Shown: positions 24,212-37,430, counted from the first letter of the stretch. The stretch: DNA of 64,000 nucleotides from Bacteroidota bacterium (GCA_029564465.1 JAKQPY010000056.1:886-64885); one strand, 5' to 3'. A program made the numbers and translations. The notes: generated from the letters alone by a model not told the origin.

Positions 24212-27157
24212 ATGAGAAAGTTAACTTTACTTGTATTGTTAGTGTCCGCCATGGGTGCGGCAGTTTTAACAGCTGTTATTTCGCAAAGAAATGCCAAATC
24301 AGTGTATGTTCCGCAGTCTGATGATACTGTTTTGGCGAATAATGGTTTTTCGGGAGCCGCAAAATGGATTTTCGAAAGGCAGGCAAACCTCGAAACAGGA
24401 ATGATTAATCCTTTAGCCATTGAGAATGCAGCAAGGCAGGTTGGCAGGATGAAGTCTTCGAAGAATTCTTTAAACCTGAACTGGGAATTTGCAGGCCCTT
24501 CGAATATTGGAGGCAGGTGCAGGGCTATTCAAATTGATAAAACCAACCCCGATATTCTATATGTGGGCGGTGTTTCGGGTGGACTGTGGAAGTCAACAAC
24601 CGGAGGAACAAGTTGGGTTCAGGTTAAATATGCCGGTGATGCTGAAACCGGAACTATTCCCAATCTGAATATCAGCAGTATTTGCCAAACCAGCAACGGT
24701 GATATTTATTTCGGAACAGGCGAATTATTCGCAAATCCTTATGGTAGCGGTAATACCGGTTTTCAGGGAGCCGGTATCTGGAAATCAACCGATGGTGTGA
24801 CTTTTTCACGACTCGCATCAACCTGGTCGGATGCCACCAGCAAAAACACTTTTGTGTTTGTAAACCGTCTCGTGGCTCATCCTACACAGGCCAATACCTT
24901 ATATGCAGCAACCAAGCGTGGTTTAATGGTTACTACCGATGGAGGTGAAACCTGGACCAATCCAATACACAACGTGGCTGATTTCCCCATTACCGAAACC
25001 TGCGGAACCGTGGCAATAAGCAGCGATGGAACCCATATCATTGTTGACCTTGGTGCACAGGTATATGTTTCGCACAACAGCGGTACCACCGAATCGTGGG
25101 TAAAAGTTACCGGCAGCAACGAAGGTAATCTTCCTACTACTTCTATCAGAACTGAACTGGCGATTGCTCCTTCCGATAAAAATATTATGTACGCCCAAAC
25201 AACCAAAAGCGACAGGAGCCTCTTAAATATTTATCGTTCGACCGACGGAGGTCTTACATGGTCTATTATCGGTCCTGGTGGTAGTGCAACATTTAATCCA
25301 TTGGGTGAGCAAGGCGACTACGACAATGTTATCGCAGTGTATCCCGATGATGCCAATTCAATTATTGTAGGCGGACAATATAGTTTATGGAAATGGGGAC
25401 TTACAACGGGTTGGGATATGCTCACCATGTGGTCGGTAGATCAGAATAGCCCAATGTATGTACATGCCGACCAGCACGAAATTAAATTCCATCCTACAAA
25501 CCCCGATATTGTTTACTGCGGAAGTGATGGTGGAATACATCGTTCGATTAATGGTGGTACCTATTGGACAACGCTGAATAAAAATTTCGGAGTTACCCAG
25601 TTCTATGCAATTGGACACAACGGAACGAATAAATTGATTGGTGGCACACAAGACAACGGTACTTTATATATTGACCCCGATCGTACGGTTACCACGGGGC
25701 TCGAAAATGAAGCTGTTTCTGTTTCGGGTGGTGATGGAGGTTACAGCGAAATTTCACAGATAGAACCCTCCATTATGTTCAGTACAATATATTATGGATC
25801 TTTGTATCGTTCCGAAGATACTGGAGAAACCATGGCTTCGTTTTACAATACCCGCTTGGAAAATAGTGCAAAACCCGGTGATGAAACCCAGGGACATCCT
25901 TTTGTAACTCCCATTGCCTTATGGGAAAGTTTCAACGATGTTAATTCTATCGAAACGGTTAGTTTGATTGCTAACCGCGACTATGAAGCCGGTGAAACTG
26001 TATTTATCGAAAGCCATATTAAAGATAATTATGTGCGGGTTACCCTTGATGCCCCTGTTGCCCAGTACGATACCATTGTGGCCACCGATCATTACCAGTC
26101 GAGGATGGCTGTTGGCTTCAAAGGCGGAGTGTGGATGACTACCCAGGCTTTAAATTTCAGGGTTACTCCCAACTGGCAGCCTGTGGCCAATTTGCGCAAA
26201 GAAGCCAACGATTACGAAGTTGTTCAATGCATTGAATTCAGCGCCGATGGTGCGTTCATGTATTTTGCAACCAACCGTTACACCAGTGGCGGTTCAAGTT
26301 CTATCCTTTACAGATTAGGCGACTTTAACGAGCATCGTCTCGATAGTGCCCGCGACGCTGATTTCAGTACGTACGAACTTGAATTGGTGCCGATTGCTGT
26401 GTTCGGTAGCCGCACAATTACCGGTATTGGAGTTGATCCAGAATCATCAGGTAATGTAGTTGTTACTTTAGGTAACTACGAAAACAACGATTATATTTAT
26501 TATTCTACCAGTGCCAATGTAGCTCCGGCTGTAACTTCAGGTCCGGGTAGCTTTGTTGCAAAACAAGGAAATCTGCCGGCTATGCCTTGCTATGATGCAT
26601 TAATTCTTTGGAACGATTCACGTAAAGTGCTTGTCGGAACTGAATTTGGTGTATTTGGCACAGCTGATATTACTGCGGCCAATCCGGTTTGGACCGATGA
26701 GAACGGGAACGGACTTGATTATGTTCCGGTATATCACCTACGTCAGCAAATAATTCCGAACGGATGGATGCCCGATATGCAATTCGACAACGGAATCAGA
26801 AATCATGGCTACATTTGGGCTGGCACGCATGGTCGGGGTATCTTTAAAACAAAGACCTATGCAGGCCCGGTTTCGGTCGAAGAAATTAGCACCAATGTAC
26901 CGAAATCAACAATTAACCTTTTCCCGAATCCTGTAAGCGAAAATGCAACAATAAGCTTTACCCTCAACGAGAACACCGATGTTTGTGCTCAGGTGTTCGA
27001 TGTTCAGGGTAAACTGGTTAAAACGTTCAACTGGAAATCGCTTTCTAAAGGAAATCAGCAGAAATCAATTAATTGCAGCGATTTAAAAGATGGTGTGTAC
27101 GTGATTTCGCTTCAGGGTGGATCTGCAAAATCGAGTACCCGTTTTATTAAACGATAA
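24212..27157 (+). CDS. BNR/Asp-box (sortilin/Vps10- or GH74-like) beta-propeller protein with T9SS C-terminal sorting domain
   Basis: 981 aa with a signal peptide. Contains repeated Asp-box-like S.D.G.TW motifs (WKSTTGGTSW, WKSTDGVTF, TTDGGETW, SHNSGTTESW, RSTDGGLTW, RSINGGTYW). The CTD is LFPNPVSENATISF...GVYVISLQGG. Confidence 0.8.
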   Translation: MRKLTLLVLLVSAMGAAVLTAVISQRNAKSVYVPQSDDTVLANNGFSGAAKWIFERQANLETGMINPLAIENAARQVGRMKSSKNSLNLNWEFAGPSNIGGRCRAIQIDKTNPDILYVGGVSGGLWKSTTGGTSWVQVKYAGDAETGTIPNLNISSICQTSNGDIYFGTGELFANPYGSGNTGFQGAGIWKSTDGVTFSRLASTWSDATSKNTFVFVNRLVAHPTQANTLYAATKRGLMVTTDGGETWTNPIHNVADFPITETCGTVAISSDGTHIIVDLGAQVYVSHNSGTTESWVKVTGSNEGNLPTTSIRTELAIAPSDKNIMYAQTTKSDRSLLNIYRSTDGGLTWSIIGPGGSATFNPLGEQGDYDNVIAVYPDDANSIIVGGQYSLWKWGLTTGWDMLTMWSVDQNSPMYVHADQHEIKFHPTNPDIVYCGSDGGIHRSINGGTYWTTLNKNFGVTQFYAIGHNGTNKLIGGTQDNGTLYIDPDRTVTTGLENEAVSVSGGDGGYSEISQIEPSIMFSTIYYGSLYRSEDTGETMASFYNTRLENSAKPGDETQGHPFVTPIALWESFNDVNSIETVSLIANRDYEAGETVFIESHIKDNYVRVTLDAPVAQYDTIVATDHYQSRMAVGFKGGVWMTTQALNFRVTPNWQPVANLRKEANDYEVVQCIEFSADGAFMYFATNRYTSGGSSSILYRLGDFNEHRLDSARDADFSTYELELVPIAVFGSRTITGIGVDPESSGNVVVTLGNYENNDYIYYSTSANVAPAVTSGPGSFVAKQGNLPAMPCYDALILWNDSRKVLVGTEFGVFGTADITAANPVWTDENGNGLDYVPVYHLRQQIIPNGWMPDMQFDNGIRNHGYIWAGTHGRGIFKTKTYAGPVSVEEISTNVPKSTINLFPNPVSENATISFTLNENTDVCAQVFDVQGKLVKTFNWKSLSKGNQQKSINCSDLKDGVYVISLQGGSAKSSTRFIKR

Positions 27158-29930: not shown

Positions 29931-31913
29931 TTATCGCAATTTCCAATCATACGCCGAGTTTTCTTTGCGGGCTGTCGGTTTTTGCCGGCCTCCGGTAATG
30001 GTTTCTACTTCCTTAATAGAATAATCTTTTATCTCTGAAACAGTAATATGTCCATCATGGTTCAAATCGGCCTGTTTATTTTGCACCCCATTGATAATTG
30101 TAAAGGTAAATATACCGTTTTTCCATTCGTTCGATTCTATGGCAAAGCCTGTGCCCGCAGCAGCTGCCAATACCATGGTTCCCGTTCCTTTATCGAGTCC
30201 AGCGAACATTTCTTTCATAATGTCGAACGAATTGTATATGCCGGCTCCCGATTTCGAAGGGTTATATTCAATACTGCGGTAGGTGTATTCTTTAACCATG
30301 TTGTTCTGTGCAAGTTGGTTATCAACACTGTCAGTAGCCAAATCAGTAATTTGGATGTCATCGCTAACAGCTTCTTTGTCAACTTCCCCGCTATGGCAGG
30401 CATCTACCAGCAGTAACTTGTGCCTGGCTGGAATACTGTCGAGAAAGGTTTCAATTTCATCGAAAGCTATGCCTTTCAAATCAGGCTTTTCGAAGTCGAT
30501 ATCGCTGGTAGCATAATAAAAATTCTGATCTTCGTTCAGCAAGCCGTGACCCGAAAAGAAAACAATGACCCTGTCGTTGGGTTTTGTGGAAAGAATTTTT
30601 GATTTTAAATTAAAGAAATTTTCACGTGTAGCAGCGCTGTCGAACAATGTATCAATTTCGATGTGCCCAAAGTTTTTGATTATAGATTTGTTTTTTAAAA
30701 ACATACGGGTTAGGTCACGCCCGTCTTTTACGGCGTACTTCAGGTTGATGGCTGGGTCGTGATAATCAGAAACACTAACAACAATAAAATACAGGTTGGG
30801 TTTTTCGGTTTTAACCGGAATATAATCAATTACCAGATTTTCTTTTCTCGACTCGGCTGCATTGCTGTTTATGCATGAAACCTGAATGCTGTTTTTTCCG
30901 AGTATCAGGCTGACCGGTACTGTGAGTTCTATGTTGCCGGTTTGATTACTTCGGTAACTGAGACCATTTCTGCCATATATCGGTACATCGTTTGCCCAGA
31001 TTTGTATTCTGTCGATGTTATATCGGTTGTCCCATGCTTTTATTTTCAGTACAATGCTGTCGTCGGTGGTGCTTAGGGGACATTCCGAAAGATTTGTGAT
31101 TTCAATTTCGGGCGTATGCCATTCCGGCGAAAACATGCTTTCGGAGAAACCTATTTTCTGCAAGCGTTTTTCGTATGCCTTACGATACAAATCGATGGTT
31201 TTTTGGTCAACAAACCCAAGTCTTTCGAGAACGATGTCTGGGCGATTAAACTGTATGTCGAACTGATCGGCTGAATATAAATCATATCCCAGCTTAAAGC
31301 CAATAGCATTCATGTTGTTCTTCGATGTGAGATAATAATTGTCGTCGGTAATAGCTATTTTATCGTTTTTACCAATGGGAATAATGCTGATTATCAGTTC
31401 ACCCGTTGTTGTGTTCCAAAGTTTTACTGACGCATCATCACCGGTTGATGCCACTATGTTCCTGTAAGGATGAAAAGCAATGCAGTTAATCGCGGCAGTA
31501 TGTCCAGTGCATACAGCTTTTTGAACTATTTTATCTTCTGATATCTCGAATAATACAAGATCGTTTTGACTGGAGGCAATGGCCAGCTGATTGCTTTTAT
31601 TATTGAATGTGGCTTGTGTTGCTTCGATTCTATAGGTAAATAGAGATGTGTTTTTATAGAAATCGTACAAATAAATTATGCCAGAACTTAATATAACTCC
31701 GACTGAATCGTTGCACATCACCGCTTTATTGGCTTTGAAAGGTAGTGATATGCTGCTTTGATAAATTTTCTTATTGTTGCTAACCAGCCAATAGCAAATG
31801 CTGTCGGTACCATCAAAACTGACAAAAACCGTATCGGAAATAAACAATACGTCAGTTACCTGATTTGCGTGATGAATCAAAGTTTTTTTCCATGGTTTCG
31901 CAATATTGTTCAC
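29931..31913 (-). CDS. WD40 blades + beta-sandwich + caspase-like (peptidase C14) domain protein; probable 3' part of a frameshift-split gene
   Basis: 660 aa from a GTG start. WD40 blade: GHTAAINCIAFHPYRNIVASTGDDASVKLWN. C14 core: NLYFIVVSVSDY, the His context VIVFFSGHG and the Cys context KLLLVDACHSGE. The C-terminus has EF-hand-like DLNHDGHITVSEIKDY...GGRQKP. The frame is open and WD40-like (GCNSKGSLFAAGYENGIITV) upstream to 32030 with no start codon. Confidence 0.85.
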   Translation of the reverse strand: MNNIAKPWKKTLIHHANQVTDVLFISDTVFVSFDGTDSICYWLVSNNKKIYQSSISLPFKANKAVMCNDSVGVILSSGIIYLYDFYKNTSLFTYRIEATQATFNNKSNQLAIASSQNDLVLFEISEDKIVQKAVCTGHTAAINCIAFHPYRNIVASTGDDASVKLWNTTTGELIISIIPIGKNDKIAITDDNYYLTSKNNMNAIGFKLGYDLYSADQFDIQFNRPDIVLERLGFVDQKTIDLYRKAYEKRLQKIGFSESMFSPEWHTPEIEITNLSECPLSTTDDSIVLKIKAWDNRYNIDRIQIWANDVPIYGRNGLSYRSNQTGNIELTVPVSLILGKNSIQVSCINSNAAESRKENLVIDYIPVKTEKPNLYFIVVSVSDYHDPAINLKYAVKDGRDLTRMFLKNKSIIKNFGHIEIDTLFDSAATRENFFNLKSKILSTKPNDRVIVFFSGHGLLNEDQNFYYATSDIDFEKPDLKGIAFDEIETFLDSIPARHKLLLVDACHSGEVDKEAVSDDIQITDLATDSVDNQLAQNNMVKEYTYRSIEYNPSKSGAGIYNSFDIMKEMFAGLDKGTGTMVLAAAAGTGFAIESNEWKNGIFTFTIINGVQNKQADLNHDGHITVSEIKDYSIKEVETITGGRQKPTARKENSAYDWKLR

Positions 31914-31929
31914 TGTAATGATACCGTTT

Positions 31930-33045
31930 TCATAACCGGCTGCAAAAAGGCTCCCCTTCGAATTGCAACCTGTGCAGCTTATCGGGTTGGGGGGGGGACA
32001 ACGGAAATAACCCCAGAACTTTTTCGTACATTAAGTTTCTGAATTTTCGATATACAGAATTGGTCTCGGTTATTTTTAGGTATTGTTCGCTCTTCGACTT
32101 GATGATGCGGTTGTCTTCGCCGGCTGAAAAATAGCTGAGCGTATCGGGTAGCGAAGAAACCGAAACAATACCATGTTTATGGACACGGGTAGTTGTCGAT
32201 TGTAGGTCAGCACTGTACAGGTCGATGGTTTTAATGTCGCCCAGTTCGTTTCCTAACATCAAATAGCGTCCCGATGCATCAAAATTAATGGAACGGTTTC
32301 GAAACGACTTGGCAGCAAGCCGTTTTTCTTCGAAAAGCTTATGAGTGTTCCAAATAATTATGGATCGGTCAGAACTCGCTGATGCAAAATTTGTTTCATC
32401 AGGGTTAAAAACTATGTCGTTCACATCTGAATTGTGCCGGTTCAGATAGCTGAGTTTCTTACCCGAATTGCTGCGTATTTTTTTTCCGTTATCGGCACTA
32501 TATAAATATATTTTACCATCGCTATTGGCCCCCAGCAGTAAATTGTTTTTTTCGGAAATACCCGTAGCATTAAAAACATCGGTGAAGTATTCACACGACC
32601 GTTTGTATTTTGTTTTGTTGGTTCCAGTCTCCCTGTTGATGAGTTTATTCCCTTCGGCAGTAACTACTAAATAATTTGCTACATGGCATTGATTCCTAAT
32701 TCTGGTTTTCTGAAGAACTATGGTGCTGTCTTTTGTTTTTAGGGTTCCAATATCCCAAACTTTTACCAATCCCTGATTGCCAATTATCAATCGTCGGTTG
32801 TTGTCGGTAAAGTACATCGATTTTACTTCTTGGTCAAATAACAGCGAACACATTTGTTTCCCAAGCAACACATTCCATACAATTATTTTTTTGTCGCTGC
32901 CATAGCTGGCCAGTAATTTACCATCGGTTGAATAGCACAGCAATTCAATGCTACCTGTATGACCGCTTTGCACAATCAAATCTACTGGTTGAGCCAGCAG
33001 CAGAACCGGCATAATGAAGAGAAGTATTATCAGAGGCAGCTTCAT
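31930..33045 (-). CDS. Signal-peptide WD40 beta-propeller protein; probable 5' part of the split WD40-caspase gene
   Basis: 371 aa with signal peptide MKLPLIILLFIMPVLLLAQ. Has multiple WD40 blades (GHTGSIELLCYSTDGKLLASYGSDKKIIVWN; HNSDVNDIVFNPDETNFASASSDRSIIIWN). The last 19 aa after the C9 tract (QPDKLHRLQFEGEPFCSRL) look out of frame. Confidence 0.8.
   Translation of the reverse strand: MKLPLIILLFIMPVLLLAQPVDLIVQSGHTGSIELLCYSTDGKLLASYGSDKKIIVWNVLLGKQMCSLLFDQEVKSMYFTDNNRRLIIGNQGLVKVWDIGTLKTKDSTIVLQKTRIRNQCHVANYLVVTAEGNKLINRETGTNKTKYKRSCEYFTDVFNATGISEKNNLLLGANSDGKIYLYSADNGKKIRSNSGKKLSYLNRHNSDVNDIVFNPDETNFASASSDRSIIIWNTHKLFEEKRLAAKSFRNRSINFDASGRYLMLGNELGDIKTIDLYSADLQSTTTRVHKHGIVSVSSLPDTLSYFSAGEDNRIIKSKSEQYLKITETNSVYRKFRNLMYEKVLGLFPLSPPQPDKLHRLQFEGEPFCSRL
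31989..31997. repeat. G9 (coding-strand C9) homopolymer at the junction of the two WD40/caspase ORFs
   Basis: I counted nine consecutive G at 31989-31997. Removing one base (C8), or adding two (C11), joins the reading frame of ORF 31930-33045 to that of ORF 29931-32030. Confidence 0.95.
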
Positions 33046-33047
33046 AA

Positions 33048-34100
33048 CTATAGGCTAAGTCGGTAGTAAAATTTCAGGGGATTATTTATCACAATGTTCC
33101 CCGATGCATCGGTGTATCGCACATAAAAATCGGGGCGAAGGTAAAAACCGTTGTAAAAATTCAGATTACGTTTTACTTTCAGATGGATGCGGTACAAATG
33201 CACGTTTTTCTGTAATATTCGGTCGAGCGATGCTATTATCAACGGGCCTTTATTTTCCATTTCGGTGTAGAAAAACGAACTGGTTTCCATGAGAAAGCCT
33301 CCGGTTCTTGAACAAATATCAGCAAACAGGGGTGCATGGTATCCAATCGATATAATGTTAATGCTGATGTTCCGGTTGAGTGCACTGTCAATTAGCTTAT
33401 TCGCATTTAACCCATAAGAATCATCAATGTTGTATGTGTAAACGGTAACGAAACGTTGTTCATTTACAGCAAAAGTATCTATGTATCGCATCATGCTCAT
33501 GCAAGCATCATAGATGTTGGAACTTCCGGATAGCTCTTCGGTATTTATTTCGGATTCCATAATTAGCTTTTCATGATATGTGCCTCCGAAAGGATTTCCA
33601 GTGCTGTCGGTAAAAATTTTATAATTGTTAATTGTGCTGCTGTTACGCGCAAAATAAGCAATCGACACCTGATTAAGATTGTTCCTACTGCTTTCAGTAA
33701 AGAAACGGTTCACAGCCCGGACTCTGAAATTAAAAGCATCGAGGTATAGGGGCGATTCGCTTTGGTTAATCAGCAAAATGTTAGAGTAGGGTAGAGAATT
33801 GTCAACAAATAGGCGCTCAATACTATCGATTTCGAAAAAAACACTACTTGTGCTTTCGATGTGAAATGCTGAATCGGGAATTAAAGTAAAATCCTTACAA
33901 TCTTCAGTAATAGCAGCCACATCTATTTCGAGCATCATCTCGTTGTTGGTTTTCCATTCAAGCTGTGTGCCCATAACAAATGCTGTCGGCAAACCCGGTG
34001 TTTTTCTTGGTTCAGGGGCACCGCGATCACAGGAACCGAAATAAATGGCTATGGAAGTGCATCCAATCAGTATTATAATATTTCTGAAAACGGTTCTCAT
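33048..34100 (-). CDS. Lipoprotein with vWA-like domain (degenerate MIDAS)
   Basis: 350 aa with lipobox AIYFGSC. The central region has a vWA-like strand/helix pattern: ILLINQSES in place of DxSxS, then SNIYDACMSMMRYI, FVTVYTYNID and ISINIISIGYH...ADICSRTGGF. The call rests on pattern resemblance only. Confidence 0.5.
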   Translation of the reverse strand: MRTVFRNIIILIGCTSIAIYFGSCDRGAPEPRKTPGLPTAFVMGTQLEWKTNNEMMLEIDVAAITEDCKDFTLIPDSAFHIESTSSVFFEIDSIERLFVDNSLPYSNILLINQSESPLYLDAFNFRVRAVNRFFTESSRNNLNQVSIAYFARNSSTINNYKIFTDSTGNPFGGTYHEKLIMESEINTEELSGSSNIYDACMSMMRYIDTFAVNEQRFVTVYTYNIDDSYGLNANKLIDSALNRNISINIISIGYHAPLFADICSRTGGFLMETSSFFYTEMENKGPLIIASLDRILQKNVHLYRIHLKVKRNLNFYNGFYLRPDFYVRYTDASGNIVINNPLKFYYRLSL

Positions 34101-34816
34101 TAATAATATATAAAGCTGTGTTTCTTCATTTTCTGAAACGACAAGGTTTCGTTGTAATGAAACGAAATGCTGTAAGTTGAAACATCCAGACGGTTTGCTT
34201 CACTGTCGATTCTTTTTTCGAAACGTACCGAAATCATGGTTTTGTTGATATTCCAACCGATTCCCCCGATTATTCTCCAATATGCCTTATTGTTGTATAC
34301 AATTCCATATAACTCGTGTATGTCGCTGTATCGATACCCCCAACCTGCATCGTTCCACACCGAGCCATCTTCGATATTCGTGTTTGCAAACACATAACAT
34401 CCTCCGGCATAAAGCGATATGAAATTTGTACCGCTGGTAATCTTCATTCCTAGGAAAACAGGCGTTTCCAGTGCTGTTTCATATACAGTCAGAGTTTGTT
34501 TGCTCCCAAGAAAACTAAGAGTTAGGTTACTTGCCCGCATCGAAGGACTTAGCTCGGTACCCATAAAAAATCTGGCATATTCCAGTTGAAAATATAAACC
34601 CAACTGACCGCCAAAAATCGGGCGGTGCGATTTACTCCCTTTCTCGGTGACCGTTCCGAAAACATTGTATGAGTAGATTGGGAAAATATAATCATCCTGA
34701 AATTTGGTTTCTCCCCAAAAAGTGAATCCTATATGTTGCCCCATACTGAAACGCTGTGCCTGTAATCCCAGGCAAAAAGAGGAGAGAAATAATATTGTTA
34801 GCGCAAATCTCACCAT
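34100..34816 (-). CDS. Small signal-peptide protein, outer-membrane beta-barrel candidate
   Basis: 238 aa with signal peptide MVRFALTILFLSSFCLGLQAQ. Shows alternating hydrophobic/aromatic strands and an aromatic C-terminus (...HSFIYY). Overlaps the downstream gene by 1 nt. Confidence 0.5.
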   Translation of the reverse strand: MVRFALTILFLSSFCLGLQAQRFSMGQHIGFTFWGETKFQDDYIFPIYSYNVFGTVTEKGSKSHRPIFGGQLGLYFQLEYARFFMGTELSPSMRASNLTLSFLGSKQTLTVYETALETPVFLGMKITSGTNFISLYAGGCYVFANTNIEDGSVWNDAGWGYRYSDIHELYGIVYNNKAYWRIIGGIGWNINKTMISVRFEKRIDSEANRLDVSTYSISFHYNETLSFQKMKKHSFIYY

Positions 34817-35484
34817 TTTCGGGGCCTGAATGAATAATTAATTTGGAAAAAAAGGAGCGCGTCATCAAAATCCTGAAAATTGTCTCGATTTCTGACAGGC
34901 CAGAATTCATAGGCTTCCTGCATGGTTCCTTGTAAACCAATATTAAAAGCCAGTTTATCGATACGCACCTGAATCAGATGAAACCGCATATACAGCCTGT
35001 AATAATCCGACTGTAAATCATCTTCAAACATCAGTTCAATTTTATTTATGAAGTTGACATAACCCCACCAAAGTCCGCTTTTATGTCCGACAAACACCTT
35101 TGCTTTATGACACCGGTTGGGAACGAATTCGTAGCCTATACCGTAGTAAACTCCATAACCGAAGTTATTCACCGATTTAAAGAAATCGGAATGTGATTGC
35201 TGCGTGCACATGAATCGGCTGATATCGATACCAAAACCATAGTTATAGCGGCCTCCGCCGAGATTCCCCGATGTTTCGGAACCTTCTTCCGGTTTCGAAT
35301 CGAGGCTTACTATAGCATTCAGGTCTATTTCGAATACAGCTTTCCTGTTGTAGTCAATCATGCGATTATCGTATCGAAAAAACTCTTTCCCATCCAGTAG
35401 AATCGATTGTTGCGCAATGGAATTGCTAATACCGACAACCAGTATCAATGTTACAAGAAATGTTATGTAAGAGTATTTTTTCAT
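34810..35484 (-). CDS. Small signal-peptide protein, outer-membrane beta-barrel candidate (first gene of the operon)
   Basis: Trimmed to Met33 (MKKYSYITFLVTLILVVGISNSIAQ), giving 224 aa. Gly/Tyr-rich strands (GGGRYNYGFGIDIS, FGYGVYYGIGYEF) and C-terminus ...NYSFRPRKW. Overlaps the next gene by 7 nt. Confidence 0.5.
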   Translation of the reverse strand: MKKYSYITFLVTLILVVGISNSIAQQSILLDGKEFFRYDNRMIDYNRKAVFEIDLNAIVSLDSKPEEGSETSGNLGGGRYNYGFGIDISRFMCTQQSHSDFFKSVNNFGYGVYYGIGYEFVPNRCHKAKVFVGHKSGLWWGYVNFINKIELMFEDDLQSDYYRLYMRFHLIQVRIDKLAFNIGLQGTMQEAYEFWPVRNRDNFQDFDDALLFFQINYSFRPRKW

Positions 35485-35702
35485 GCACTTTCCACAGGTA
35501 AAAATAATAATTAATCCGATTGCCCATTCATCCCATACTCCGAATCGATATTGTTTCGTTATGTCCGGCAAATTGTGCACAAAACCAGGTCATACAACCG
35601 ACTTACGAATTTCTATTCATTTTATAATTTTTATCAACAGAGGGTTATCACTTATCGATATTTTTATTATTTTTACCTGAAATTAATTAAAAACACACAA
35701 TT

Positions 35703-37430
35703 ATGAGAAAAAATTTACTTCTGGTGGCACTATTGTTTGCAGCCGCTCTGGCTGGTGCACAAACCACCATTTTCAGCGAAAACTTCGACGGTCTTACCGC
35801 CGGACAAACAGTGAATTCCCAGCAACCTCTGTTTTATCCCTGGACAGGTCAGGTTGCTGAAAATGGCTACGTGAGTGATGTTCAATCGCATTCAGCGAGC
35901 AATTCAATGAAAATCATCAACAATAATGATATGGTTTTCAATTTTGGCGATAAAACCAGCGGTGAATTTGATGTAAACTTCTGGGTTTATGTCGTTGCGG
36001 GTCAGGGAGGTTATTTCAATGTGGAACATGACTTCGGTACTTCCTGGGCATTTGCATTCTATTTCAGGACTGATGGTACCTGCGACCTGATTCAGGGTGG
36101 TGTAACAACCAATTTTGCTTATGCTGCCGATACCTGGATGCAGGTAGAACTGAATATTAATCTCGAAACCGATCAGGCAACAGCCTGGGTTGATGGCACC
36201 GAAATTCTGACCTGGACATTCTCGAACGAAGAAGATGCTGCCGGTGGACAAAACAAACTGGATGTTATCAATTTTTACGGACTTCATCAGACAAGCACCG
36301 GTGTAAACAATTCGGAATATTATGTTGATGATTTCGAATATATCGAAATTCAGAGTGGCATTGCTCCGGCAACTATCGATGTTGAAACAGCCACCATTAC
36401 TACCGATGGCACAACCACTGAATTGCTCAACATTGCCAATGTGGGCGAACTCGAAATGAATTACAAGGCATATCCTGTGTTTCAGGATCCTGCACTCACT
36501 TCAAACCTGATTGACGGACAGATGAATTATGACCTTGATATTGTAACTGCCATTGGCTGGCAGGAAAGCTTCGAAGTGGATGTTGCAGTACGTATGGGAA
36601 CCGACATTACATCACAGCATATTGGACAGGTGATTCACTATATTACTTTCTTTATTAACGACCTTCCTGCTACCGAAAACATCACGGTGTATGTCTGGTC
36701 GAAAGGCGAATATACCCAACCCGGAACTTCAACCGTGTTGTTCGAACAGGTAATGACCCCAACAGCCCAATCGTGGAATGCCGTTACACTTGATAACCCC
36801 ATTGTTATTACCGGCGACGAACTGTGGATTGGATATCGTTTTACCGGACCTGCCGGTGGTTTTACTTTGGGTGTTGATGACCAACCTGTTGTTCCGGGAA
36901 CCTGCTACCTGCGTACCGGTCCTGTTTGGACTGAATTTACCGGTGTTGAAGGAACCGGAAACTTCTGCATCCGTGCCGAAGTTGAAGGTGCCGGATGGCC
37001 CGTATGGCTTAATGTTGCTCCTGGTAGTGGTACTTTGGCCGCCGGTGCAAATACCGACCTGAACCTCAGTTTTAACACTGCCGGTCTGGTGAACGGAACT
37101 TACTATGCTGATGTGGTAATCGGAGCCAACGATCCCGATCAGCAATGGACAGAAGTTCCTGTTGAACTCACATATTTTGTTGGTATCGACAATCAGACAT
37201 CGGTTGGAGTAATGACTTACCCGAACCCGACACGCGATTTTGTAAACATTGTAACCGACAATCAGATTGAATCGGTAAACGTGTTTAATACAGCCGGTCA
37301 ATGTGTGATTTCTCTTAACGTGAATGCTGCCAGCACCTCTATCGACATAAGCAGCCTTTCAACAGGAAACTATATCATCGAAGTGAGTGTTGCAGGTGCA
37401 ACTACCCGCAGCCAGCTTGTAGTTGAGTAG
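35703..37430 (+). CDS. Secreted LamG/jelly-roll-like protein with T9SS C-terminal sorting domain
   Basis: 575 aa with signal peptide MRKNLLLVALLFAAALAGAQ. The N-terminal domain is concanavalin-like (FSENFDG...YYVDDFEY). The CTD is TYPNPTRDFVNIV...GNYIIEVSVAG. Confidence 0.75.
   Translation: MRKNLLLVALLFAAALAGAQTTIFSENFDGLTAGQTVNSQQPLFYPWTGQVAENGYVSDVQSHSASNSMKIINNNDMVFNFGDKTSGEFDVNFWVYVVAGQGGYFNVEHDFGTSWAFAFYFRTDGTCDLIQGGVTTNFAYAADTWMQVELNINLETDQATAWVDGTEILTWTFSNEEDAAGGQNKLDVINFYGLHQTSTGVNNSEYYVDDFEYIEIQSGIAPATIDVETATITTDGTTTELLNIANVGELEMNYKAYPVFQDPALTSNLIDGQMNYDLDIVTAIGWQESFEVDVAVRMGTDITSQHIGQVIHYITFFINDLPATENITVYVWSKGEYTQPGTSTVLFEQVMTPTAQSWNAVTLDNPIVITGDELWIGYRFTGPAGGFTLGVDDQPVVPGTCYLRTGPVWTEFTGVEGTGNFCIRAEVEGAGWPVWLNVAPGSGTLAAGANTDLNLSFNTAGLVNGTYYADVVIGANDPDQQWTEVPVELTYFVGIDNQTSVGVMTYPNPTRDFVNIVTDNQIESVNVFNTAGQCVISLNVNAASTSIDISSLSTGNYIIEVSVAGATTRSQLVVE

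Follow-up and report, generated by a model that had tools for sequence, protein, structure and literature searches.

The stretch of DNA analysed here, 64,000 nucleotides (nt) from a Bacteroidota bacterium (GCA_029564465.1, JAKQPY010000056.1:886-64885; hereafter the window), carries a conserved operon that probably encodes a protease module working, as a complex, in the cell envelope and not in the cytoplasm; we put the probability of this reading at roughly 70%. The predicted components are an exported caspase homologue fused to WD40 blades, a small outer-membrane beta-barrel (p2), a lipoprotein with a von Willebrand factor A (vWA) domain (p3) and a further small exported protein (p1). The conserved signal peptides, the p2 barrel and the linkage of these genes across species all speak for the original prediction, made from this DNA without database searches, that the protease acts in the periplasm or at the cell surface together with outer-membrane partners. 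The operon consists of five head-to-tail open reading frames (ORFs) on the minus strand, and their coordinates were all reproduced (Table 1), as were the junctions p1/p2, p2/p3, p3/ORF4 and ORF4/ORF5 (a 7-nt overlap, a 1-nt overlap, a 2-nt gap and a 16-nt gap, respectively) and the length of the AT-rich spacer upstream (G+C 0.312 as against 0.401 for the operon). Packing is tight, and the genes are linked across species and under purifying selection, the ratio of non-synonymous to synonymous substitution rates (dN/dS) being 0.10-0.14 for all of them in comparison with L001, a 90% relative (homologous loci are designated by such L numbers).

Table 1. Features of the operon and its surroundings; coordinates are those of the window unless a locus is named.
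Feature	Position	Strand	Remarks
p1 ORF	35484-34810	minus	224 amino acids (aa) from ATG
p2 ORF	34816-34100	minus	238 aa
p3 ORF	34100-33048	minus	350 aa
ORF4	33045-31930	minus	371 aa
ORF5	31913-29931	minus	660 aa, GTG start
WD40-caspase gene, split as ORF4 + ORF5	29931-33045	minus	repaired product 1037 aa
Homopolymer tract	31989-31997	minus	G9 on the plus strand, C9 on the coding strand; cause of the frameshift, C8 restores the frame
p3 lipobox YFGSC	34029-34043	minus	motif search
p3 motifs resembling a metal-ion-dependent adhesion site (MIDAS)	33753-33776 (NQSES), 33504-33530, 33417-33437	minus	family alignment
Peptidase_C14 domain	29973-30785	minus	PF00656 match
His motif FFSGHG	30543-30560	minus	motif search
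Cys motif LLLVDACHSGE	30384-30416	minus	motif search
EF-hand-like loop DLNHDGHITVSE	30033-30068	minus	motif search
Upstream spacer, 218 bp	35485-35702	none	common to p1 and the divergent gene for a type IX secretion system (T9SS) cargo
PepSY_like protein	L047:3166-4893, L068:1562-3520, L079:2816-4846, L081:2066-4291		p3 slot; PF11396

Comparison with homologues shows ORF4 and ORF5 to be a single gene. Deletion of a single base from the homopolymer tract fuses them into a product with zero internal stops that has 90% identity, across its entire length, to the 1037-aa homologue P0001 and 64% identity to another of 1046 aa; it is also colinear with single-ORF homologues that are ~1010-1070 aa long and 31-40% identical to it. 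Read on the coding strand, ORF4 gives ...LFPLSPPQPDKL... and meets a stop 22 codons past the tract, while the ORF5 frame before its GTG reads ...PPNPISCTGCNSKGSLFAAGYENGIITV, which resembles a WD40 blade. Four near-identical assemblies (L086, L087, L088 and L090) carry C8 and are read through in frame, the window shares C9 with L085 and L089, and in L001 the tract is interrupted (TTGCCCCCC). It had been foreseen that joining the ORFs across this tract would give the caspase a signal peptide, and the 1037-aa fusion, the full-length homologues and the four C8 assemblies all agree with that. As assembled, the copy in the window is thus off, the extra base cutting the catalytic half off from the signal peptide and the first blades.

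The in-frame alleles elsewhere suggest an on/off polymorphism. The tract has the features of a slipped-strand contingency locus: it is a homopolymer within an ORF, its length differs between assemblies and it switches the frame, and in other assemblies of nearly the same organism tract length is the sole difference. A serious competing explanation, to which we give somewhat less than even odds, is that the extra base is a sequencing or assembly error and that the organism has an intact gene without phase variation. Homopolymers are prone to such errors, C8 is read through in four of the six other near-identical assemblies, and both halves of the gene are under purifying selection with no second lesion; dN/dS against L001 is 0.125 before the tract and 0.10 after it, so that neither half has decayed and the lesion must be recent, polymorphic or an artefact. 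Against an error, C9 was seen again in two assemblies of separate records (JGI 3300010346 and ENA ERZ773360, possibly not independent samples), and the tract is the only G/C run of at least 7 in the 64-kb window, shuffled versions of which yield 0.09 runs of at least 9.

The repaired product runs from the signal peptide through ~535 aa of WD40 blades, a helical segment with an NRPD motif and a predicted beta-sandwich to the Peptidase_C14 domain. Pfam WD40/beta-propeller matches cover ORF4 and residues 1-180 of ORF5, in keeping with the propeller and the additional blades originally described there, and PF00656 matches ORF5 residues 377-647 with 35.0 bits, above the cut-off of 21.4. Across nine aligned C-terminal halves (A1), H274 and C324 are invariant, as are the NRPD motif of the middle region and D434, N436, D438 and E445 of the loop, which has the form DxNxDGxIxxxE; among 87 full-length family ORFs, [SA]GHG is found in 80 and D[ATS]C.SG in 82. 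By these residues the catalytic dyad is intact and the EF-hand-type loop conserved, so that the caspase domain with its His/Cys dyad and the C-terminal loop were both correctly recognised at the outset. Divergence is faster in the WD40 half than in the catalytic half: identity to P0002 is 54% in the former and 75-78% in the latter, and for distant homologues the figures are ~27% and ~48%. The NCBIfam model NF047832 (caspase_w_EACC1) gives a sub-threshold match (73.3 bits, cut-off 140) over model positions 4-144 of 211. In PADLOC-DB 2.0 an intact caspase homologue met only the generic caspase model and a repeat cross-match, and p1, p2 and p3 had no match; a profile of the sandwich and caspase regions had none in a sequence search of the PDB. 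As a separate observation, 49 of the 87 family ORFs (loci L002-L084) end in a Trp within a D[FW][RK][IV]W motif, while the clade of the window ends in DWKLR; a terminal aromatic residue on a soluble exported caspase might be a docking signal.

The assignment of all these products to the export pathway is made because of conserved hydrophobic, Gln and lipobox features at their N-termini. The intact caspase begins with MKLPLIILLFIMPVLLLA followed by QPV (LLLA/QPV, the slash marking the predicted cleavage site), and a hydrophobic N-terminus followed by Gln is present in 15 of 15 close caspase homologues and, by a simple pattern, in 67 of the 87 family ORFs. The signal peptides of p1 and p2 end in ...SIA/QQS and ...LQA/QRF, respectively, Gln Q21 of p2 being invariant in 42/42 relatives, and p3 has the lipobox YFGS/C, the Cys of which is kept by 74 of 75 relatives. 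Such signal-peptidase-I substrates with Gln after the cleavage site follow the Q-rule described for the Bacteroidetes (PMC5837995). The N-terminal sequence thus marks the caspase as a Sec/signal-peptidase-I substrate, and the idea that every component of the operon carries an export signal holds.

With respect to p2, modelling shows what is very probably an integral outer-membrane beta-barrel, as had been proposed for this 238-aa protein, with an estimated 8 to 10 strands judging from the strand list. The AlphaFold2 model (26 sequences; predicted local distance difference test, pLDDT, 77.8; predicted template-modelling score, pTM, 0.71) is all-beta with long hairpins, and the top 28 PDB matches returned by Foldseek at E<=1e-3 are outer-membrane barrels (OmpA, Ail, OmpX, OmpW, NspA, OmpT/Pla and autotransporter barrels), with target-normalised TM scores of at most 0.58, which is moderate confidence. 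The window protein has no significant match in Pfam or NCBIfam (the best is Porin_5 at E=0.082), and a sequence search of the PDB with the p2 profile gave nothing useful, the sole PorV match being to the signal peptide (E=0.053). Remote links to Pfam barrel families come from its 42 relatives, some of them divergently oriented paralogues: PF13568 is found in 13, PF13505 in 10 and the NCBIfam TDE1717 barrel family in 9. Two caspase-adjacent relatives, L076 and L009, reach 27.0 and 22.5 bits against the Pfam barrel cut-off of 27, and hhalign connects the p2 clade of the window to other caspase-adjacent clades with 91-98.7% probability. The C-terminus of p2 reads ...SFIYY; many relatives terminate in ...YYEE, without the final aromatic residue. 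In seven Bacteroidales loci (L036, L040, L041, L043, L045, L048 and L058) p2 lies directly before a ~1010-aa caspase, and nearby, upstream of p2 and on the opposite (minus) strand, is a gene for a ~210-aa protein that was retrieved through the p2 profile and by its sequence resembles an ordinary barrel of the OMP_b-brl_2 type.

The fold of p3 is predicted with greater assurance (AlphaFold2, 75 sequences; pLDDT 93.6, pTM 0.89): the model has a vWA core at about residues 105-296 flanked by strands at 39-100 and 299-343, that is, a putative beta-sandwich with an inserted vWA domain. Its top Foldseek matches in the PDB are vWA domains only (E down to 1.3e-8, probability 1.00), among them TFIIH subunits, the bacterial vWA protein 4fx5, integrin beta headpieces, the A3 domain of von Willebrand factor and pilus-tip adhesins. 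The 350-aa lipoprotein with a vWA-like core is therefore as first described, by the model, by Foldseek and by its lipobox, whereas a vWA profile match, expected for the window protein itself, is found only in its relatives: p3 of the window meets no Pfam family at E<=0.1 and no NCBIfam model, but PF00092 is present in 5 of 19 relatives from syntenic loci (best 3e-6), and others match VWA_2 or VWA_3. The family profile also matches vWA chains in the PDB. A HMMER search with p3 collected 195 representative clusters, and the longer relatives pass Pfam VWA and bear domains of a kind typical for extracytoplasmic proteins (Big_2, CARDB, PKD, FG-GAP or PPC). The MIDAS columns of the family hold D in 70, S in 66, S in 39, S or T in 66 and D in 66 of 75 sequences; p3 of the window reads NQSES...S...D, with an N at the first position that occurs in just two of the 75.

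The protein p1 is an accessory component that most of the operons lack. A metagenome scan found it in 6 loci, all of one clade. Neither the window protein nor 10 relatives match anything in Pfam, NCBIfam, PADLOC or the PDB, and hhalign gives p1 against p2 a probability of 7%, the three proteins p1, p2 and p3 being mutually unrelated. About eight period-2 amphipathic segments, similar to those of p2, fit a small barrel without demonstrating one. The gene has a dN/dS of 0.14 against L001. ORFs in the p1 position of other clades were considered as possible p1 homologues and rejected, as they are unrelated by hhalign. In L034:1861-3034, L054:1787-2907 and L069:1839-2951 the slot before p2 is occupied by a lipoprotein of ~155-165 aa (lipobox of the SCKKE type) together with a barrel-like protein of ~215 aa, and so the small exported proteins before p2 vary by clade.

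A profile of the C-terminal half of the caspase matches at least 585 loci in contigs representing one genome per species; nearly all are from Bacteroidota, with a few from Ignavibacteria and one from Isosphaeraceae. Iterated profiles of p1, p2 and p3 were run over the best 77 of these loci, and the linkage counts refer to the 60 species-level caspase genes among them that have at least 3 kb of upstream sequence. For these genes p2 is upstream in 27 cases, p2 and p3 in 13 and all three in 6, while two have only another caspase gene upstream. The nesting is strict, p3 occurring only with p2, and p1 only with p2 and p3; in all seven of seven further p1 loci p2 lies downstream, followed by p3 where the contig reaches that far. 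Hence p2 is a frequent partner of the caspase, and p3 and p1 accompany it in subsets only. The same order, (p1)-p2-(p3)-caspase, stands beside homologues of 20-40% identity in Bacteroidales, Cytophagales, Chitinophagales and unclassified Bacteroidia, and even two distant p3 relatives occupy it. On the contigs of five homologues with 31-40% identity, one or two small ORFs and an ORF of 325-384 aa precede the caspase; pairwise BLAST ties such upstream ORFs to p1-p3 in L002, L005 and L006 but not in L004, the p2 of which only the later profile search brought to light. A PepSY_like protein of 576-742 aa (PF11396, E down to 1.6e-32) separates p2 from the caspase in four loci (Table 1). PepSY domains are associated with peptidase inhibition. 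In the NCBI annotation the relatives of p1 and p2 are called 'hypothetical protein' and those of the caspase 'caspase family protein'. Two further arrangements were noted in passing: a protein with PD40 and OmpA domains immediately upstream of p1 in L002/L003 (L002:4095-5636), and a second Peptidase_C14 protein, with TPR, immediately downstream of the WD40 gene at L099:9497-10975.

How might such a module work? The four products would come together either on the inner face of the outer membrane or as an assembly spanning it, with p2 as the membrane anchor. The metal-ion site of p3 could bind an acidic residue of the protease or of its substrate, making p3 an adaptor or regulator; we read the slot between p2 and the caspase as regulatory because it holds p3 here and the PepSY-like protein in some relatives. 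The fast-diverging WD40 blades would then choose the partner or substrate, and the caspase domain would make limited, probably Ca2+-dependent, cuts in envelope or surface proteins. Maturation of surface proteins, sensing or defence at the level of the envelope, and nutrition are all compatible with the data, and none is strongly favoured.

A number of points weigh against an envelope complex of this kind. The co-occurrence of the five genes holds only in part: p1-p3 are nested with the caspase across species, but 31 of the 60 caspase genes have none of p1, p2 and p3 within 3.2 kb upstream. There are, moreover, tandem arrays of three or four WD40-caspase paralogues on one strand without p1-p3 (L012, L013, L027 and L015; contig CAZVKJ010000011.1 is the source of three of these loci). 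The partnerless genes and the arrays together imply that p1-p3 are not obligatory for the caspase family; in the cultured Labilibacter marinus Y11 (L015), for instance, caspase-family genes are present and the p2 and p3 profiles match nothing upstream of them. The argument for a four-protein assembly is purely one of synteny, p1 is a protein without an assigned fold, and the signal peptides were assigned by eye and with a simple pattern. The Asn at the first MIDAS position of p3 may mean weaker metal binding in this particular protein. This lipoprotein may face either the cell surface or the periplasm: the residues after its lipid-bearing Cys are CKKE-like, with at least two acidic residues at +2 to +6 in 23 of 74 relatives, which is a moderate enrichment. 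Lastly, as discussed above, the frameshift in the window copy could be an assembly error.

Within the envelope, one speculative possibility, rather improbable, is an extracytoplasmic counterpart of the apoptosome or of immunity of the nucleotide-binding leucine-rich-repeat receptor (NLR) type. The WD40 part would sense foreign proteins entering the periplasm (phage ejection proteins or the injected effectors of competitors), whereupon the proximity-activated, Ca2+-dependent caspase would cut envelope targets or the invader; the barrel and the vWA lipoprotein would anchor and restrain it, and the homopolymer tract would switch expression.

Slightly less probable, in our view, is a machine for the maturation or sorting of surface proteins, in which the clan-CD peptidase would be a processing enzyme or transpeptidase by analogy with the T9SS attachment complex. 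That complex, formed by PorU, PorZ, PorV and PorQ, comprises a clan-CD cysteine peptidase, beta-propellers and outer-membrane barrels, and is thus another Bacteroidota envelope assembly built of similar parts in a phylum that bears the T9SS. The product of a neighbouring gene has the T9SS domain PF18962, and relatives of p3 bear surface-type domains. Here, however, the propellers are fused to the peptidase, neither the caspase nor p3 has a T9SS C-terminal domain (PF18962 matched none of the five operon products in Pfam), and the likeness is one of domain types only; no homology to PorU, PorZ, PorV or PorQ was seen, none having been specifically tested for, and the sole PorV match is the one to the p2 signal peptide mentioned above.

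An envelope protease with a nutritional or housekeeping role, degrading imported or misfolded proteins with p2 as the uptake channel, is a little less probable still. Bacteroidota do pair outer-membrane barrels with lipoproteins for nutrient uptake, and the operon lies among housekeeping genes with the same G+C content as its surroundings. Yet p2 is small, in the size class of OmpA, OmpX and OmpW, and is not a TonB-dependent transporter; caspase-fold enzymes usually cut to a limited extent; and the lineage-specific tandem expansion together with the fast-evolving recognition half fit specific recognition better than bulk degradation.

A WD40-caspase that serves in the cytoplasm as an effector of conflict or cell death, and to which the upstream envelope genes are unrelated, seems very unlikely. 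Most of the prokaryotic WD40/TPR-caspases that have been discussed are indeed cytoplasmic (PMC7159879; PMC3501461), ORF5 as assembled has no signal peptide and there is the sub-threshold caspase_w_EACC1 match. Nevertheless, a conserved signal peptide with Gln behind it stands at the start of the intact gene, neither an NTPase nor an EACC1 partner was seen, the EACC1 match of 73 bits against 140 covers the first two thirds of the model only, PADLOC offers merely its generic caspase model and the synteny with exported partners is strictly nested. Finally, a chance adjacency of five ORFs with no common function can practically be dismissed, even if the related caspase genes stand without these neighbours in about half of the cases, in view of the gene order repeated at 20-40% protein identity in several orders, the nested occurrence and the overlapping start and stop codons.

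An envelope module of this composition can be set against several known systems. The prokaryotic C14 homologues (metacaspase-like proteins and orthocaspases) have the same Peptidase_C14 domain with a His/Cys dyad, and WD40 is their commonest fusion partner; meta- and orthocaspases have Arg/Lys as their P1 specificity. The present family differs from the known fusions in that its WD40 region lies at the N-terminus, behind a signal peptide, in that a NACHT or any other NTPase is absent, and in that the NRPD segment and the predicted beta-sandwich precede the caspase domain; it is also linked to the genes of a dedicated outer-membrane barrel and of a vWA lipoprotein. Export alone is not new, since a 2012 survey of prokaryotic caspase homologues reported N-terminal helices that are possible signal peptides and WD40-caspase fusions, as well as OmpA in 14 caspase operons and multi-caspase operons in Bacteroidetes (PMC3501461). 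The vWA-MoxR and vWA ternary conflict systems (Kaur et al. 2020, PMC7159879) likewise place a vWA/MIDAS protein beside an effector with repeats, but they are NTP-dependent and cytoplasmic or associated with the inner membrane, whereas the operon described here has no NTPase and all of its products are exported; the terms 'signal peptide' and 'outer membrane' do not occur in the text of that paper. The integrin beta headpiece and the pilus-tip adhesins SpaC and PitA resemble p3 in having a vWA domain inserted in a beta-sandwich, with motifs of the MIDAS type, although identity is 7-15% and the root-mean-square deviation over long alignments is high; p3 differs from them as a 350-aa Gram-negative lipoprotein with NxSxS in place of DxSxS. 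Similarly, p2 shares with OMP_b-brl_2/OMP_b-brl, OmpA, OmpX, OmpW and Ail its modelled fold, a signal peptide and an aromatic C-terminus, but its family is specifically linked to caspase genes and the window protein has no Pfam match. A full-text literature search found no description of an operon joining an exported WD40-caspase, an outer-membrane barrel and a vWA lipoprotein, and PADLOC gave no system-specific match; the impression that this composition fits no named system therefore persists.

Discussion of bacterial caspase homologues has mostly centred on death or defence effectors in the cytoplasm; in the present family the WD40-caspase stands behind a conserved signal peptide. It is widespread, with nearly half of the 60 best-matching genes (those with at least 3 kb upstream) tied to an outer-membrane barrel and some of them also to a vWA lipoprotein. 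Should the products indeed make up one complex, the Bacteroidota envelope would have a form of regulated proteolysis not described before, and names could be given to three families now annotated as hypothetical proteins.

As to the surroundings of the operon, its opposite strand has merely short ORFs that overlap the operon genes, and neither an Rfam family nor a tRNA was found in the operon region. The divergent neighbour at 35703-37430 (plus strand) encodes a 575-aa protein with the T9SS Por_Secre_tail domain PF18962 (precomputed Pfam), and a 981-aa protein encoded at 24212-27157 (plus strand) has, judged by eye, a T9SS-type C-terminal domain. Such tails on the neighbouring products imply that the organism has a type IX secretion system. 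Promoter and terminator scans gave scores no better than those of shuffled sequence, the sigma-70 consensus being a poor model for Bacteroidota. The spacer does contain a perfect 16-nt inverted repeat at 35495-35510 and 35664-35679 (CAGGTAAAAATAATAA / TTATTATTTTTACCTG) enclosing 153 nt, while 500 shuffles yielded none longer than 13 nt; its arms could either flank an invertible promoter or serve as paired regulator sites. Of these, inversion lacks support, the segment having the same orientation in nine of nine other assemblies. The arms of the repeat are kept in L001 and L087, the sequence between them being 80% and 73% identical, respectively. In L087, the p3 of which is 100% identical to that of the window, some 100 p1-proximal nucleotides between the arms are unrelated sequence (L087:2632-2779 compared with window 35511-35663), and the promoter-bearing segment is thus far more variable than the genes that it precedes.

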